This document shows, piece after piece, positions 6,702-55,872 of a DNA stretch of 64,000 bases; position 1 is the first letter of the stretch; each line of letters starts with the position of its first letter. Both the position numbers and the translations under genes were made by a program. The notes beneath the pieces are model-generated. The model ran no database searches, was not told where the DNA came from, and saw only the letters and a list, made by a program, of their open reading frames with translations. This DNA is from Parcubacteria group bacterium CG08_land_8_20_14_0_20_48_21 (GTDB lineage: Bacteria > Patescibacteriota > Patescibacteriia > UBA1544), in assembly GCA_002774425.1 (NCBI GenBank), contig PEYJ01000011.1, positions 35,915 through 99,914 on the forward strand, written 5' to 3'.

Positions 6702-7619
6702 ATGTCCCATTCCATGGTAACCGTTGCTGAATTGCTTAAAAAAGCTACCGAACAATTACACGCGCACCATATTGACACCCCGGATCTTGATGCCGAGGTG
6801 CTTTTGTCTTGGGTACTCAACCGAGACCGCGCGTGGCTTTTCGTGCATGCCGATGCGCGTCTGACCGTTGTGCAAAAGGAAAAATTTTTTCGCGTGATAC
6901 AAAAACGCTCGCGCCGTGTTCCGATTGCCTATATCACCGGTAGCAAACCGTTTTACCGGTCGGACTTTATCGTCAATCAACACGTGCTCATCCCCCGCCC
7001 CGAAACGGAAACGCTGGTGGAAGAAGCGGTGCGTGCTCTAGGGGATAAGCGACATCCTGCTACGGTTGTTGATGTCGGCACTGGCAGCGGCTGTATCATG
7101 GTAAGCGTCGTACAAGAACTTTTGGCAAGAAGTGAAGATATTTCCGGTATGCGATTCTACGCAACCGATATATCTCACAAGGCGTTGCGTATTGCGAAAA
7201 AAAATGCAAAAAAAGAAGGTGTTGCAAAATATATCACTTTTTTACACGGTAATTTGTTGGAACCGTTTCTCATCCTGCAGAACGCCGTCCCTACGAAAAA
7301 ACTGTACATTCTTGCAAATCTTCCGTATCTTTCAGAAGTACAAATGCGCAATCTGCAACAGGAGGTCGCCCATGAACCGCGGGAAGCACTTGATGGCGGG
7401 GTTGAGGGATTGGCATACTACCGAAAACTTTTTGCGCAAATGCAAAACATGCGACGCGTACAGCGCGCGAGTATAATCTATACGCTATGCGAAATAGAGC
7501 CCGTGCAGGCAACGACGCTTACCAGCGAGATATGCAAAAACTTTCCAAGAACAACCGTACGCATGCGTAAGGATTTGCAGGGCAATGATCGCGTACTCCT
7601 AGCTCTCTCAAATCTATGA
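6702..7619 (+). CDS. prmC: release factor glutamine N5-methyltransferase (PrmC/HemK)
   Basis: SAM-binding VVDVGTGSGC and NLPY (a variant of the NPPY catalytic motif). Sits directly after prfA. Confidence 0.85.
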   Translation: MSHSMVTVAELLKKATEQLHAHHIDTPDLDAEVLLSWVLNRDRAWLFVHADARLTVVQKEKFFRVIQKRSRRVPIAYITGSKPFYRSDFIVNQHVLIPRPETETLVEEAVRALGDKRHPATVVDVGTGSGCIMVSVVQELLARSEDISGMRFYATDISHKALRIAKKNAKKEGVAKYITFLHGNLLEPFLILQNAVPTKKLYILANLPYLSEVQMRNLQQEVAHEPREALDGGVEGLAYYRKLFAQMQNMRRVQRASIIYTLCEIEPVQATTLTSEICKNFPRTTVRMRKDLQGNDRVLLALSNL

Positions 7620-18595: not shown

Positions 18596-18624
18596 TTGAC
18601 AATAGTAAAAATCTGTACTATAGT
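18596..18624 (+). promoter_or_regulatory. consensus sigma-70 promoter
   Basis: TTGACA, a 17 nt spacer, then TATAGT, upstream of the small membrane-protein gene. A strong SD (AGGAGG) precedes its ATG. Confidence 0.6.
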
Positions 18625-18670
18625 ATGGTACAGATTTTTTGCTCTTTAACTCTTTCTTTAGGAGGAAAAT

Positions 18671-21170: not shown

Positions 21171-21209
21171 CTTACAGGAGGCAGTTTGGGGAAACACGAA
21201 AAAATTTAC

Positions 21210-22214
21210 ATGCCGCTTCAAGCAAAGATCAAACGCGTTGATACTACACTCCCCCTTCCCCGCTACGCAACGGCCGGTGCGGTGGGTTTTGACATGGTTA
21301 GCCGCGAAACAGTTATCATCTCTCCTAAAACGCTCGTGCGCATTCCCAGCAATCTGATTATTGAAATTCCTGCAGGCTATGCGTTGCTCGTGGTTCCCCG
21401 AAGCTCCACGCCGAAGAAGAAGGGGCTGCTCATTCCGCACGGTATGGGTGTTATTGACCGCGACTACTGCGGACCTGCAGATGAGATACTCATCCAACTC
21501 TATAATTTTACGGCCGAAGAAGTGACGGTTGAGCGGGGTGAGCGCATTGCACAGGGACTGTTCACCCGTATTGACCGGGTGGAGTGGAAAGAAGTGGAAA
21601 CCATGGCACACAACGATACACGCGGCGGATTTGGGAGTACGGAACCGCAATCAAAAATGAACATGAACAAACAGGATATTCTTGATATTATTGCGCGCGA
21701 TTCCTGGATGATGGAGGTGTTACGCGCAGCACGTTTACTCCATCTTCCTGATTGGATGATCGGCGGCGGGTTCGTGCGAAATAAGATTTGGGACGTATTA
21801 CATGGCTTTCAGAATGACATGGTTCCAACAGCCGATATTGATCTTATCTACTTTGATCCACGAATTACTGATGCATGGCAAGAAAAAACCTACGATACGC
21901 AACTGAAGAAAATTCTCGACCTTAACTGGTCATCCAAAAACCAAGCGCGCATGCATCTTAAGCACAACCGCTCGCCCTACAAAAACATTGAAGAAGCGCT
22001 TTCCGACTGGGTAGAAACCGCGACTGCCGTTGCTGTTCGATTGCAAGATGATAGTACACTGAGATTATTTGCCCCGCACGGAATAGATGACCTTATGCAT
22101 CTCATTGTTCGTCCAACACCGTTACATGCTTCTAGCTTGCAGCACTTTCATGAACGGGTACACGGCAAAAAATGGCGAGAACGCTGGCCGAAATTAAAAG
22201 TTGTAGAAATATAA
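21210..22214 (+). CDS. dut: dUTP diphosphatase fused to a C-terminal minimal nucleotidyltransferase-fold domain
   Basis: N-terminal dUTPase motifs 1-5 (AGAVGFDM, PRSS, GVIDRDYCG, RIAQ, RGGFGSTE). C-terminal ~185 aa carry GGGF-x20-DIDLIYFD, the hG[GS]...DhD nucleotidyltransferase signature. Start set at MPLQAKIKR. Confidence 0.75.
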   Translation: MPLQAKIKRVDTTLPLPRYATAGAVGFDMVSRETVIISPKTLVRIPSNLIIEIPAGYALLVVPRSSTPKKKGLLIPHGMGVIDRDYCGPADEILIQLYNFTAEEVTVERGERIAQGLFTRIDRVEWKEVETMAHNDTRGGFGSTEPQSKMNMNKQDILDIIARDSWMMEVLRAARLLHLPDWMIGGGFVRNKIWDVLHGFQNDMVPTADIDLIYFDPRITDAWQEKTYDTQLKKILDLNWSSKNQARMHLKHNRSPYKNIEEALSDWVETATAVAVRLQDDSTLRLFAPHGIDDLMHLIVRPTPLHASSLQHFHERVHGKKWRERWPKLKVVEI

Positions 22215-22958: not shown

Positions 22959-24464
22959 ATGCAAAATAAGAAATATGAAACCGTTATCGGACTAGAAATC
23001 CATGTACGGCTTGACACGAAGTCAAAGATGTTTTGCGCATGCAGCAATTCCGGAGAAGATCTGCCGCCGAACACGACGGTATGTCCCATTTGCATGGGGC
23101 ATCCCGGCACACTTCCCGCTATGAACGAGCAGGCAATTGCATGGGGTATGAAAGCGGCGCTTGCCATCAATTGCACCGTGGCGCATGAGTCAAAGTTTGA
23201 TCGCAAACACTACTTCTACCCTGACTTGCCTAAGGGCTACCAAATTTCCCAATACGACCAGCCCATTGGGCAGAACGGCTGGATAGAGTTTATGGTTGAG
23301 AGCGAACTCAAAAAGGTTCGGCTCAACCGCCTACACCTGGAAGAAGATGCTGCAAAGCTCATGCACGAAAAAAATCATTCACTGGTTGATTTTAACCGTG
23401 CCGGAGTGCCACTCGCGGAAATTGTAACCGAAGTCGATCTCCGCTCCCCCAAAGAAGCCAAGGCATTTTTACAGGAACTGCGCCGCATCATGCGCTATCT
23501 CGGCGTCTCGGAAGCTGACATGGAAAAGGGACATTTGCGCTGCGACGCGAATATTTCCCTGCGTCCGGTTGGGGATGCCAAGCTCTACGCCAAAACGGAA
23601 ATAAAAAACCTCAACTCATTTCGTTCAGTGGAAAAAGCGCTTGCCTATGAAGAAGAGCGGCAGCGAATATTATGGGAAGAAGGCACTCCGGTGTCTTACC
23701 TCTCTACGCGCGGGTGGAACGAACAGGAACAGAAAACGTATGAACAACGTATTAAAGAAGATGCAAACGACTATCGTTATTTTCCTGAACCTGATCTGCC
23801 CCCGCTTGAATTTAAGGACCGTGTCATTGAAGCAGTGCGCGATCAGCTTCCCGAACTTCCCGCGGCCAAGCGTAAACGCTTCCAAGAGCAGTATGGACTC
23901 TCCCCTGCTGACGTTGCGGTACTGACCGATGATAAGGAAGTTGCCCATTATACCGAACAGGTGATATCGGAACTCAAAAGCTGGCTTATGGATTTGGAGG
24001 AAATGGAGGGAACTGAAGAAGATATCTGGCGAACGCACAAAAAGAAGCTGGCAAAACTGGTTGCGAACTGGATTGGCACTGAACTTTTTAAGCATCTCAA
24101 TGAACACAAGCTTTCAATTAAAGATTGTAAGATAACCCCGGAAAATTTTTCGGAGTTCTTGACGCTCATTTGGAAGAAAAAAGTTAATTCCTCTGCCGCC
24201 CAAACCATTCTTGAAACCATGCTGGGTACAGGAGCTGATCCCTCGCATATTTTGGAAGAAAAGGACTTGGGACAAATGGATGATGCGAGAGCGCTTGATG
24301 TAATTATTGCAAAAATCATTACGACAAACGAGAAAGTCGTTGCTGAATATAGAGGGGGTAAGGAAAATGCCATACAGTTTCTTGTGGGTATGGTCATGAA
24401 AGAAAGTAAAGGCAAAGCAAATCCGGAAACTGCACTGGAGATATTGAGAAAGAAATTATCTTGA
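22959..24464 (+). CDS. gatB: Asp-tRNA(Asn)/Glu-tRNA(Gln) amidotransferase subunit B
   Basis: Start at MQNKKYETVIGLEIHVRL. Typical GatB with a C-terminal YqeY-like tail. gatA and gatC are not adjacent. Confidence 0.9.
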   Translation: MQNKKYETVIGLEIHVRLDTKSKMFCACSNSGEDLPPNTTVCPICMGHPGTLPAMNEQAIAWGMKAALAINCTVAHESKFDRKHYFYPDLPKGYQISQYDQPIGQNGWIEFMVESELKKVRLNRLHLEEDAAKLMHEKNHSLVDFNRAGVPLAEIVTEVDLRSPKEAKAFLQELRRIMRYLGVSEADMEKGHLRCDANISLRPVGDAKLYAKTEIKNLNSFRSVEKALAYEEERQRILWEEGTPVSYLSTRGWNEQEQKTYEQRIKEDANDYRYFPEPDLPPLEFKDRVIEAVRDQLPELPAAKRKRFQEQYGLSPADVAVLTDDKEVAHYTEQVISELKSWLMDLEEMEGTEEDIWRTHKKKLAKLVANWIGTELFKHLNEHKLSIKDCKITPENFSEFLTLIWKKKVNSSAAQTILETMLGTGADPSHILEEKDLGQMDDARALDVIIAKIITTNEKVVAEYRGGKENAIQFLVGMVMKESKGKANPETALEILRKKLS

Positions 24465-24649
24465 TTTATTTCTTAAGTACCCTATATATGGAAAGAGAAA
24501 AACTATTTGGTATACGTGATGCCGAACCAGGAGAAGGAGGAGTAACGCATGTAGCTGAAGGAGCTATTGATCCCGAAAAGGAACGAGCGGAATTAGAAAA
24601 AATGGGAGTTGAATTTCCTGAAGACGGAGAACAAAAGGAAACTGCTTAA
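24461..24649 (+). CDS. small acidic hypothetical protein (doubtful)
   Basis: 62 aa, Glu-rich. The start overlaps the gatB stop as ATGA. No SD and no homology recognised. Confidence 0.2.
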   Translation: MIYFLSTLYMEREKLFGIRDAEPGEGGVTHVAEGAIDPEKERAELEKMGVEFPEDGEQKETA

Positions 24650-24705
24650 GCATACTTTTTTTGGATTAACTTGACAGTTTTTTTTGGGCATGCTACCATA
24701 TTTTT

Positions 24706-24836
24706 CAGTATGCGTATACAGTTGCACAAGCCGTATCAGCGACTATCCGGAACCGCACAATACTGCGGGAAGCATACGCCGTTTCCCAAAATCAATTCAG
24801 TAAAAAATACCTCTCGCTAAGCGAGGTATTTTTTTG
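24706..24836 (+). ncRNA. candidate small RNA (~130 nt) with its own promoter and terminator
   Basis: Promoter TTGACA (24671-24676), a 17 nt spacer, then TACCAT (24694-24699). Strong intrinsic terminator at 24807-24836. Contains UCCGGAA...GGGAAGCA, reminiscent of the SRP RNA apical motif interrupted by a CCGCA-caauac-UGCGG hairpin. No coding potential. Confidence 0.35.
24807..24836 (+). terminator. intrinsic terminator (bidirectional architecture)
   Basis: ATACCTC(T)CGC-TAA-GCGAGGTAT followed by TTTTTTT. Preceded by an A-run. Confidence 0.7.
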
Positions 24837-24886
24837 TGGATTGGTTTGTAGATAGATCTTTACACTTCAAACTAGGAGGAAATACC

Positions 24887-25240
24887 ATGATTCCCTGTCC
24901 CTTTGCCGTAACCGGCACCTGTCCGTCAATCGGAGAGGCTTGTTTTTCCCTCTCCAGCAGCTTACGAAGTGAGTGCGAAATGTACGCGTCCCGCAACCCA
25001 AGTTTTCAAGTACTTGATGTCATTGGCAACACCGACGCACAGCACAAGATTAGGACGCCACACTGGCAGACCGTTATTAATAATGTTGGCAAGGGGCCGT
25101 TTGAAGAGCTGATTATCATGGAGTATCGTGATAGGTGCGCTTCGTCGGTGCTATTTAATGTTACGGTGCTACAACACAGTATCGAAAAACACAAGAATCT
25201 CTCATGTCCTGACACGCTGCTGGCACATGTCGCCGCATAA
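24887..25240 (+). CDS. hypothetical Cys-rich protein
   Basis: 117 aa. AGGAGG SD 6 nt before the ATG. CPFAVTGTCPSIGEAC cysteine cluster. A terminator follows. Confidence 0.45.
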   Translation: MIPCPFAVTGTCPSIGEACFSLSSSLRSECEMYASRNPSFQVLDVIGNTDAQHKIRTPHWQTVINNVGKGPFEELIIMEYRDRCASSVLFNVTVLQHSIEKHKNLSCPDTLLAHVAA

Positions 25241-25268: not shown

Positions 25269-25295
25269 AAGGCCGTCTTTTGGTGGCCTTTTTTC
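25269..25295 (+). terminator. intrinsic terminator
   Basis: AAGGCC-gtcttttggt-GGCCTT followed by TTTTC. Confidence 0.45.
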
Positions 25296-55785: not shown

Positions 55786-55872
55786 GCCGCAGTGGTGGAA
55801 CTGGTAGACACGCAGCGTTCAGGGCGCTGTGACTTTCGGGTCGTGAGAGTTCAAATCTCTCCTGCGGTACCA
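55786..55872 (+). tRNA. tRNA-Leu (anticodon CAG)
   Basis: Manual fold: acceptor GCCGCAG/CTGCGGT, D-arm with GG, anticodon loop TTCAGGG, long variable arm, T-loop TTCAAAT, encoded CCA. Confidence 0.85.

Follow-up and report, generated by a model that had tools for sequence, protein, structure and literature searches.

A 64,000-nt stretch of a Patescibacteria (candidate phyla radiation, CPR) genome, referred to here as the window, carries on its plus strand a short element lodged between gatB and the convergent gene miaA. Judged by comparison with related genomes, this element is a short, self-contained transcription unit under selection, delimited by a promoter and a terminator, and we propose (at a probability of about 0.45) that it is a leaderless, translated leader open reading frame (ORF) embedded in its own terminator, which would act as a coupling-type attenuator of the small gene behind it. 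The layout is that of an attenuator: the predicted transcript opens with a short ORF, and a terminator stands ahead of a co-oriented gene for which no separate promoter is recognizable. In eight of eight loci the ORF overlaps the terminator in a way that would let a translating ribosome occlude the hairpin.

The unit begins with a sigma-70-like promoter that scores 10 of 12 against consensus and carries an additional TG (extended −10). It ends at an intrinsic terminator whose arms, ATACCTCTCGC and GCGAGGTAT, enclose a TAA loop and lead into seven T, the last T of the stem included (coordinates in Table 1). A first-pass annotation had named both signals, describing TTGACA-17-TACCAT and a near-perfect terminator with TAA between its arms, and sequence reading together with a consensus scan bears it out; its further structural calls, a 5′ GUAUGC complementary to a downstream GCAUAC and a CCGCA-caauac-UGCGG hairpin, are likewise present. 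A conserved block, CAGTATGCG, begins at the transcription start predicted from promoter geometry. Single promoter-like and terminator-like matches do not exceed chance expectation in this region (17 versus 13 expected, and 16 versus 11, respectively), and we take the unit to be real because it is conserved. Past the terminator, the consensus scan finds no usable promoter in 24836–24886, where the sole promoter-like match overlaps the start codon of a gene for a Cys-rich protein. No promoter was found between terminator and gene in any of six loci examined (the window by consensus scan; L006, L021, L111, L116 and L117 by eye). Other genes of the genome have canonical TTGACA promoters 50–105 nt upstream.

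Conservation was measured against locus L006, whose GatB is 77% identical and gives the best species-level match, all others lying at 63% or lower. Four-fold degenerate sites are 0.42 identical in gatB and 0.35 in miaA, so neutral sites are near saturation. Within the element, the −35 box is identical at six of six positions and TGCTA..AT is kept, the RNA 5′ end is 75% identical, the hairpin region 77% (with an identical stem), the linker 83% versus the neutral 42%, and the terminator 80%. The middle third shows neutral identity, as do the DNA upstream of the −35 box, the DNA between the −10 box and the start, and the interval from the terminator to the next ATG, which also has indels. The flanking small proteins have diverged widely: a 53-residue ORF on the gatB side has no detectable similarity to its counterpart, and the Cys-rich protein is 36% identical. 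Conserved segments inside and neutral DNA outside therefore define a conserved unit bounded by promoter and terminator. The terminator stem has a compensatory A-U to U-A change in L006, and the GTATGC/GCATAC pairing is kept there through G-C to G-U and U-A to U-G changes; the L021 clade does not have this pairing.

Eight elements, homologous or equivalent by position, were found in Patescibacteria (window, L006, L021, L111, L116, L117, L118 and L119), all of them between gatB and convergent miaA. L021 (Komeilibacteria, GatB 57%) emerged as a weak nhmmer match and was then confirmed as a relative in the gatB–miaA slot; contigs for GatB proteins near L021 gave L111, and then L116–L119. Each locus has a sigma-70-like promoter at the same position, a hairpin plus U-tract terminator whose stem sequence differs from locus to locus, and a same-strand downstream gene with a Shine–Dalgarno (SD) sequence and without a recognizable promoter of its own (promoter absence examined in six). 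The L021 element comprises a TTGCGT-17-TATTAT promoter, a GC hairpin, UCUAUUUUUCC...UUCAAUUCAG and a terminator. A GC-rich hairpin stands at the corresponding position in seven of the eight, starting about 35–46 nt past the AUG and differing in stem sequence; it is clear in the window, L006, L021, L117, L118 and L119, is a weak 4-bp stem in L111 and is missing from L116. These seven loci have a U-run of 3–7 nt about 8–14 nt past the hairpin, and L116 has the U-run without the hairpin. The TTTCC plus TCAATTCA stretch is common to L021 and L111, and conservation of the 5′ domain does not extend from one clade to the other. Stems were compared by eye across the eight loci, as global MAFFT alignments of elements and terminators were out of register. 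The element is absent from the gatB–miaA locus of L007 and L115. Searches for further copies were negative: a covariance model built from window and L006 found none in 567 kb, a collection of phages gave no match, a metagenome scan for AACCGCA-N6-TGCGGGA-N-GCAT gave 22 matches (all chance, in high-GC coding DNA), and a search with the GatB C-terminus for fragments of close relatives gave none above 56% identity.

The first-pass annotation had described about 130 nt with no plausible ORF and had called the element a candidate stand-alone small RNA (sRNA). We find that the ATG at 24710 opens a frame of 36 codons (the ORF list of the window carries a longer form of it, 24671–24820) and that equivalent frames exist in all eight loci, each opened by an ATG without an SD, running for 25–36 codons and ending in the terminator zone. 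This ATG follows the −10 box at a distance of 7 nt in five loci (L021, L111, L116, L117 and L119); the window and L006 have 10 nt here, and L118 has 14. In six loci the stop codon opens the hairpin loop; the L118 frame stops at the stem base, and the L119 frame at the end of the U-tract. With promoter and terminator held fixed and the intervening sequence shuffled, the chance of this ATG–ORF–terminator arrangement is 0.003–0.05 per locus. Stop triplets are absent in frame across the eight ORFs, whereas the two alternative frames contain 14 and 7; the P value of this deficit is about 2e-4, or 7e-4 when each lineage is represented by a single locus. L116–L119 were retrieved after the ORF hypothesis had been fixed in writing; three of these four fit it fully and L118 fits in part. 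The sole indel between the window and L006 across the entire element falls just 3′ of the stop codon.

A start-proximal ATG and a terminator-ending ORF in eight of eight loci argue against a plain non-coding sRNA, and the element is probably not one. Of the earlier description, the discrete promoter-to-terminator unit under selection is supported and the non-coding premise is not. A trans-acting, non-coding RNA of about 125 nt would combine a structured 5′ domain, a conserved single-stranded seed rich in A and U (UUUCC...UCAAUUCA) and, at its end, a terminator; the reading frame would then be incidental. It would account for the promoter and strong terminator, for conservation at the nucleotide level irrespective of frame, for an unpaired conserved linker that adjoins the terminator, and for folds more stable than those of shuffled sequences (z = −4.1 for 24700–24842; z = −5.6 for the L021 element). 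In the window clade the 5′ end, AUG included, can moreover pair with 24772–24777. Such an RNA leaves the start-proximal ATG, the lack of in-frame stops and the stop at the terminator unexplained, its 5′ domain is not kept between clades, and the complement of its single strand runs past the U-tract. This last feature is a match between the post-terminator segment 24836–24848 and the linker 24789–24799, of uncertain significance: the helix shows a few compensatory changes, it is unclear in L116 and L117, and the GTTCTTTGA-like motif past the terminator is conserved in its primary sequence as well. We consider a purely non-coding sRNA distinctly unlikely. The idea does not exclude attenuation, because RNAs released by attenuators can act in trans (rnTrpL, PMC6614838).

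Identification as an RNA of a described family was pursued with Rfam. A permissive local scan of 24450–24900, in a mode that recovers the tRNA of the window (tRNA-Leu(CAG), 55786–55872 by ARAGORN; 48.1 bits in the local scan, gathering score 29), returned spurious matches on the terminator only. Whole-window scans in gathering and E-value modes gave zero matches and missed this tRNA, and for that reason we do not count them as evidence. In L021 the best sub-threshold matches, Phe_leader at 28 bits (gathering 55) and His_leader at 22 (gathering 49), both fall on the terminator part and lie far below threshold, so that the element is not a member of either family. No Rfam family matches the element in the local scans of the window and L021.

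The suggestion that the element is a divergent signal recognition particle (SRP; 4.5S, ffs) RNA, also made in the first-pass annotation, is rejected as far as sequence analysis reaches, and we give it next to no weight. Its attraction lay in a size similar to that of bacterial SRP RNA (RF00169, RF01854) and in two strings, TCCGGAA and GGGAAGCA, that resemble the domain IV apex. The strings are indeed present, but they do not form an SRP apex: GGAA is followed by CCGCA with no closing strand, so there is no closed GNRA tetraloop. Neither RF00169 nor RF01854 is matched at E ≤ 10 in 24450–24900, and the canonical apex GTCCGGAAGGAAGCAGC, with up to 3 mismatches allowed, has 0 matches in the whole window. 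In L006 UCCGGAA has become UUCCAAA and GGAAGCA has become GGACGCA, both strings are absent from L021, L111 and L116–L119, and the element as a whole is missing at this locus from the close relatives L007 and L115. A literature search on CPR sRNA or SRP RNA found nothing relevant.

How the element might work, from the start of transcription through translation of the ORF and pausing to the logic of read-through, we infer from its layout. RNA polymerase would start a few nucleotides 5′ of the ATG at 24710 and, because there is no SD, a ribosome would load on the 5′-terminal AUG. The 36-codon frame would then be translated, its last codons forming the 5′ arm of the terminator and its stop lying in the hairpin loop. 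A ribosome pacing the polymerase would cover the terminator arms at the time of hairpin formation, blocking the hairpin and permitting read-through into the promoterless, SD-led gene for the 117-residue Cys-rich protein. Were translation not started or lagging, the hairpin would form and an RNA of about 125 nt would be released. The GC hairpin in mid-ORF and the U-run (UUUCC in the window) may pause the polymerase until the ribosome arrives; candidates for the sensed signal are translation capacity and a polymerase speed that depends on UTP. In the window clade, pairing of the AUG-containing 5′ end with 24772–24777 would sequester the start codon of the released RNA.

No antiterminator was found. 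The 5′ arm of the terminator is unpaired in the folds of window and L006 up to the terminator loop, suboptimal structures within 3 kcal/mol included, and neither arm has an alternative pairing in either sequence. This bears on the notion of an untranslated cis-regulatory leader, a riboswitch or a protein-binding attenuator, in which a 5′ domain resembling a three-way junction would be the sensor. The order of promoter, structured domain, terminator and SD-led gene, with no second promoter, would suit such a leader, and the junction-like fold (P1/P2/P3) has the minimum free energy in L006 and, for the window, comes to within 1 kcal/mol of the minimum. The fold is not common to the L021 clade, so we dropped the three-way-junction 'aptamer' as a feature of the family. 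As the middle third is neutral, the downstream genes are unrelated and no Rfam family matches, we hold an untranslated leader to be very unlikely.

If the ORF is translated, what selection maintains could be the peptide or its making. The eight peptides (Table 1) have no common motif beyond that imposed by the nucleotides of hairpin and terminator, and no Pfam or NCBIfam match. Substitutions are spread evenly over codon positions (15/11/14 for window versus L006, 14/16/17 for L021 versus L111), with no periodicity. Owing to an indel of 1 nt past TTTCC, the conserved TCAATTCAG block falls into a different reading frame in each of the two clades, and its conservation is therefore at the nucleotide level. 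From the lack of a conserved peptide, the lack of codon periodicity and the frame-shifted block, it appears that the act of translation, rather than the sequence translated, has been kept.

Several observations weigh against the attenuator proposal. Openness of the frame, taken alone, has P of 0.05–0.5 per locus, and in some loci the other two frames are nearly open as well. L118 has ATA in place of the ancestral ATG; its frame begins at another ATG close by, is shorter and ends at the terminator. The ordinary genes of the window show no enrichment in leaderless starts (3 matches versus 2 in the control), and in the window and L006 the predicted mRNA has about 3 extra nt before the AUG, a number suboptimal for leaderless initiation. 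Regulatory codons are not enriched beyond Lys (16% K), with no tandem run and at most one Cys codon. The downstream genes differ by lineage: the window and L006 have the Cys-rich family, L118 and L119 have unrelated proteins, and L021, L111, L116 and L117 have a small uncharacterized family with GKNP and WHxGPAW motifs, which is a single unit in L111 and two ORFs in L117. With genes unrelated across lineages, no common pathway, ligand or sensed signal can be named. Finally, Lys and Arg make up 24% of the peptides, only 3 of whose 261 residues are acidic, and acidic codons number 3 in frame versus 12 and 15–20 out of frame. This avoidance hints at selection on peptide composition and fits a basic micro-protein better than a mere leader.

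The element might accordingly be read as an autonomous gene for a very basic micro-protein of 31–36 residues, whose leaderless mRNA would have a promoter and a terminator to itself; genome compaction would then explain why stop and terminator overlap, and the genes that follow would be passengers in the gatB–miaA slot, unrelated to it. Retention of the ORF in eight loci, the acidic-codon depletion and the variable downstream genes are all compatible with it. So are the AAG codons (14 in frame versus 2 and 3 in the other frames) and a slightly better amino-acid similarity in frame 0 (BLOSUM scores of 90 versus 60/63, and of 43 versus 25/17); together with the acidic-codon depletion, these make some selection on basic composition possible. 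What speaks against such a gene is the pattern of change described above, even over codon positions and without a residue pattern shared across clades beyond that set by the hairpin and terminator nucleotides, together with the block read in two frames, the lack of a protein-family match and the absence of the element from the close relatives L007 and L115. It also leaves SD-led downstream genes promoterless. We regard a micro-protein gene as unlikely, and continue to favour the translated attenuator.

Among the closest parallels to that attenuator is UTP-sensitive attenuation of pyrBI in E. coli, where the leader ORF (pyrL) overlaps the terminator, a close ribosome prevents the hairpin and there is no antiterminator. 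As in pyrBI and pyrE, the leader ORF of the element overlaps an intrinsic terminator and no antiterminator is predicted; as in pyrL, the U-rich tracts 5′ of the terminator encode Phe-Pro (FP, FFP). The parallel extends to neighbours in pyrimidine nucleotide metabolism (dut and tmk; thyA, folA and dcd in relatives) and to shorter modules before pyrB/carA-like genes in relatives. Unlike in pyrBI, the start is leaderless rather than SD-led, the stop lies mostly in the loop rather than beyond the terminator, the genes behind the element encode small hypothetical proteins and not pyrimidine enzymes, and there is no sequence similarity. The principle of attenuation of pyrBI and pyrE by coupled transcription and translation is given in PMC4491880 (citing Turnbough 1983).

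Leaderless leaders have precedents in attenuators with small ORFs in mycobacteria (the Cys 'ribulon'; bioRxiv 10.1101/834739) and in leader peptides of Deinococcus deserti (PMC4007540). In these cases an AUG at the 5′ end opens an unannotated small ORF, the first cistron of an operon, ahead of the gene proposed to be controlled; the ORF of the element would be placed likewise, with its AUG at the predicted start or a few nucleotides past it. The element differs from the mycobacterial type in having no run of regulatory or consecutive Cys codons (one Cys at most) and in belonging to a different phylum; the mycobacterial example acts on SD accessibility and not on a terminator, and the folds of the element show no SD sequestration. 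With the trp, his and phe leaders the element shares the order of promoter, short ORF, pause-like hairpin, terminator and structural gene, but no antiterminator pairing or pathway codon enrichment is found in it, and its ORF runs into the terminator. As in rnTrpL/peTrpL of Sinorhizobium, an sRNA and peptide pair derived from an attenuator (PMC6614838, PMC7298713), the terminated leader could be a small RNA with a second function in trans, although the two have no sequence relation.

A feature search for the same pattern elsewhere (promoter, ATG within 5–11 nt, ORF of at least 10 codons, stop at a terminator) returned 11 modules in 1.56 Mb versus 1 in reversed controls. Among them are shorter modules of other Patescibacteria (Table 1), built of a promoter, an ATG 7–11 nt past the −10 box and a frame of 13–21 codons whose stop falls within a terminator or immediately ahead of it. 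Modules in L032, L051 and L115, separate from the gatB–miaA element, precede pyrB/carA-like genes; others precede small Cys-rich proteins.

The gene order around the element is a dUTPase fusion, tmk and gatB (all on the plus strand), the 53-residue ORF, the element, the gene for the 117-residue Cys-rich protein (plus strand), and miaA, miaB and thrS (all minus). The first-pass annotation had placed the element between gatB and the Cys-rich gene, which is inaccurate in that the 53-residue ORF at 24488–24649 separates it from gatB. An ORF similar to this 53-residue one in size and composition, with no detectable sequence similarity, occupies the same place in L006 and L032. The Cys-rich gene shows codon-periodic divergence from its L006 homologue (0.47/0.58/0.27). 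Its product has no Pfam match, retrieves only itself in a word-index search and itself plus spurious repetitive proteins in a full HMMER search, and gave an unusable AlphaFold2 model (predicted local distance difference test 39). Between the convergent Cys-rich gene and miaA, a hairpin with a T-run (25269–25290) is apparently a shared bidirectional terminator.

Further features of the neighbourhood stand apart from the element. At 21186–22214 one ORF joins the dUTPase domain to a PF06042 nucleotidyltransferase domain, and in assembly L001 the tmk beside this fusion is split into two called genes, probably through a frameshift of assembly or strain. At 18596–18640 the spacer of a TTGACA-17-TATAGT promoter folds together with downstream sequence into a terminator-like hairpin (AAAAATCTGTAC ... 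GTACAGATTTTTT), the −10 box falling in the loop; this promoter lies just 5′ of an SD-led ORF for a small membrane protein (start 18672) and may be a terminator and promoter combined. Komeilibacteria-like loci have another element of about 120–150 nt directly 3′ of gatB (L021:5528–5645, L111:3776–3925, L114:3805–3883), absent from the window, whose inverted ends (GTCATYCYG... ...CWCAGGATGAC) make it look like a repeat or a miniature mobile element.

Table 1. Positions of the element's parts, of its neighbours and of related modules, with the predicted leader peptides. Unprefixed positions refer to the window; others carry the name of their locus.
Feature	Position	Strand	Remarks
Sigma-70-like promoter	24671–24699	+	−35 TTGACA 24671–24676, 17-nt spacer, TG 24691–24692, −10 TACCAT 24694–24699
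Predicted transcription start	24706–24708	+	7–9 nt past −10
Long-range pairing GTATGC/GCATAC	24708–24713 with 24772–24777	+	lineage-specific; 5′ part contains the start codon
Short ORF, 36 codons	24710–24820	+	MRIQLHKPYQRLSGTAQYCGKHTPFPKINSVKNTSR; no SD; ATG 10 nt past −10; stop TAA in terminator loop
GC-rich hairpin CCGCA-caatac-TGCGG	24753–24768	+	arms 24753–24757 and 24764–24768; within the ORF
U-run TTTCC and TCAATTCA block	24782–24799	+	TTTCC 24782–24786, block 24792–24799; best conserved unpaired stretch across clades
Intrinsic terminator	24802–24835	+	A-tract; stem 24807–24829 (arms 24807–24817 and 24821–24829); loop TAA 24818–24820; T-run 24829–24835
Spacer to downstream gene	24836–24886	+	SD AGGAGG 24874–24879; without usable promoter
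Gene for Cys-rich protein, 117 residues	24887–25240	+	presumed regulated gene; SD AGGAGG 24874–24879
Acidic ORF, 53 residues	24488–24649		between gatB and element; called as a gene in public assemblies
GKNP/WHxGPAW genes	L111:4138–4443; L021:6094–6291; L116:4314–4490; L117:4295–4858		motifs LP.GKNP and VR.WH.GPAW
Shorter modules	L032:5740–5875; L051:5880–5990, 7070–7180; L115:4470–4610; L010:5300–5400; L016:5590–5710; L049:5820–5940		
Peptide, window	24710–24820	+	MRIQLHKPYQRLSGTAQYCGKHTPFPKINSVKNTSR
Peptide, L006			MRVQKKQYYSVLFQTAEHCGTHVYFPRIKSLKNSSH
Peptide, L021			MKKYSVQKKKCFITRARAGKKSIFPLQFRKITP
Peptide, L111			MKNQAINKKKFKNRSAAQKNRFQFQFKKMTP
Peptide, L116			MILYKITKLDKHKRPKKIYFFPLKLIFQKFKITP
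Peptide, L117			MPWNNHITKQFTKAKPANRAGISIISIFQKRLS
Peptide, L118			MNGYTTATHRNKKTRRRVRSVLIFT
Peptide, L119			MNLFLGKYTINLKRSNECLKIHFLANHPKRMIF

A literature search found no described cis-regulatory RNA or leader for Patescibacteria, organisms with very small genomes, little recognizable regulation and almost no experimental genetics. As a generalization, speculative and rather doubtful, the elements may represent a hitherto undescribed family of leaderless 'coupling-checkpoint' leaders in the Patescibacteria (CPR), in which a 5′-AUG ORF of about 33 codons, translated in step with the polymerase, overrides its own terminator. If this holds, lineage-specific genes for small proteins would be gated by leaders of this kind and pyrimidine genes by their shorter versions, and the released leader or the very basic peptide might have a second function. 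Devices of this kind would be overlooked, as their ORF is skipped by gene callers and only their terminator is visible to RNA scans; a candidate annotated as an sRNA with promoter and terminator should therefore be checked for an ATG close to the start site before it is called non-coding. A conserved module of leaderless leader ORF and terminator would offer the phylum a concrete, testable regulatory device.

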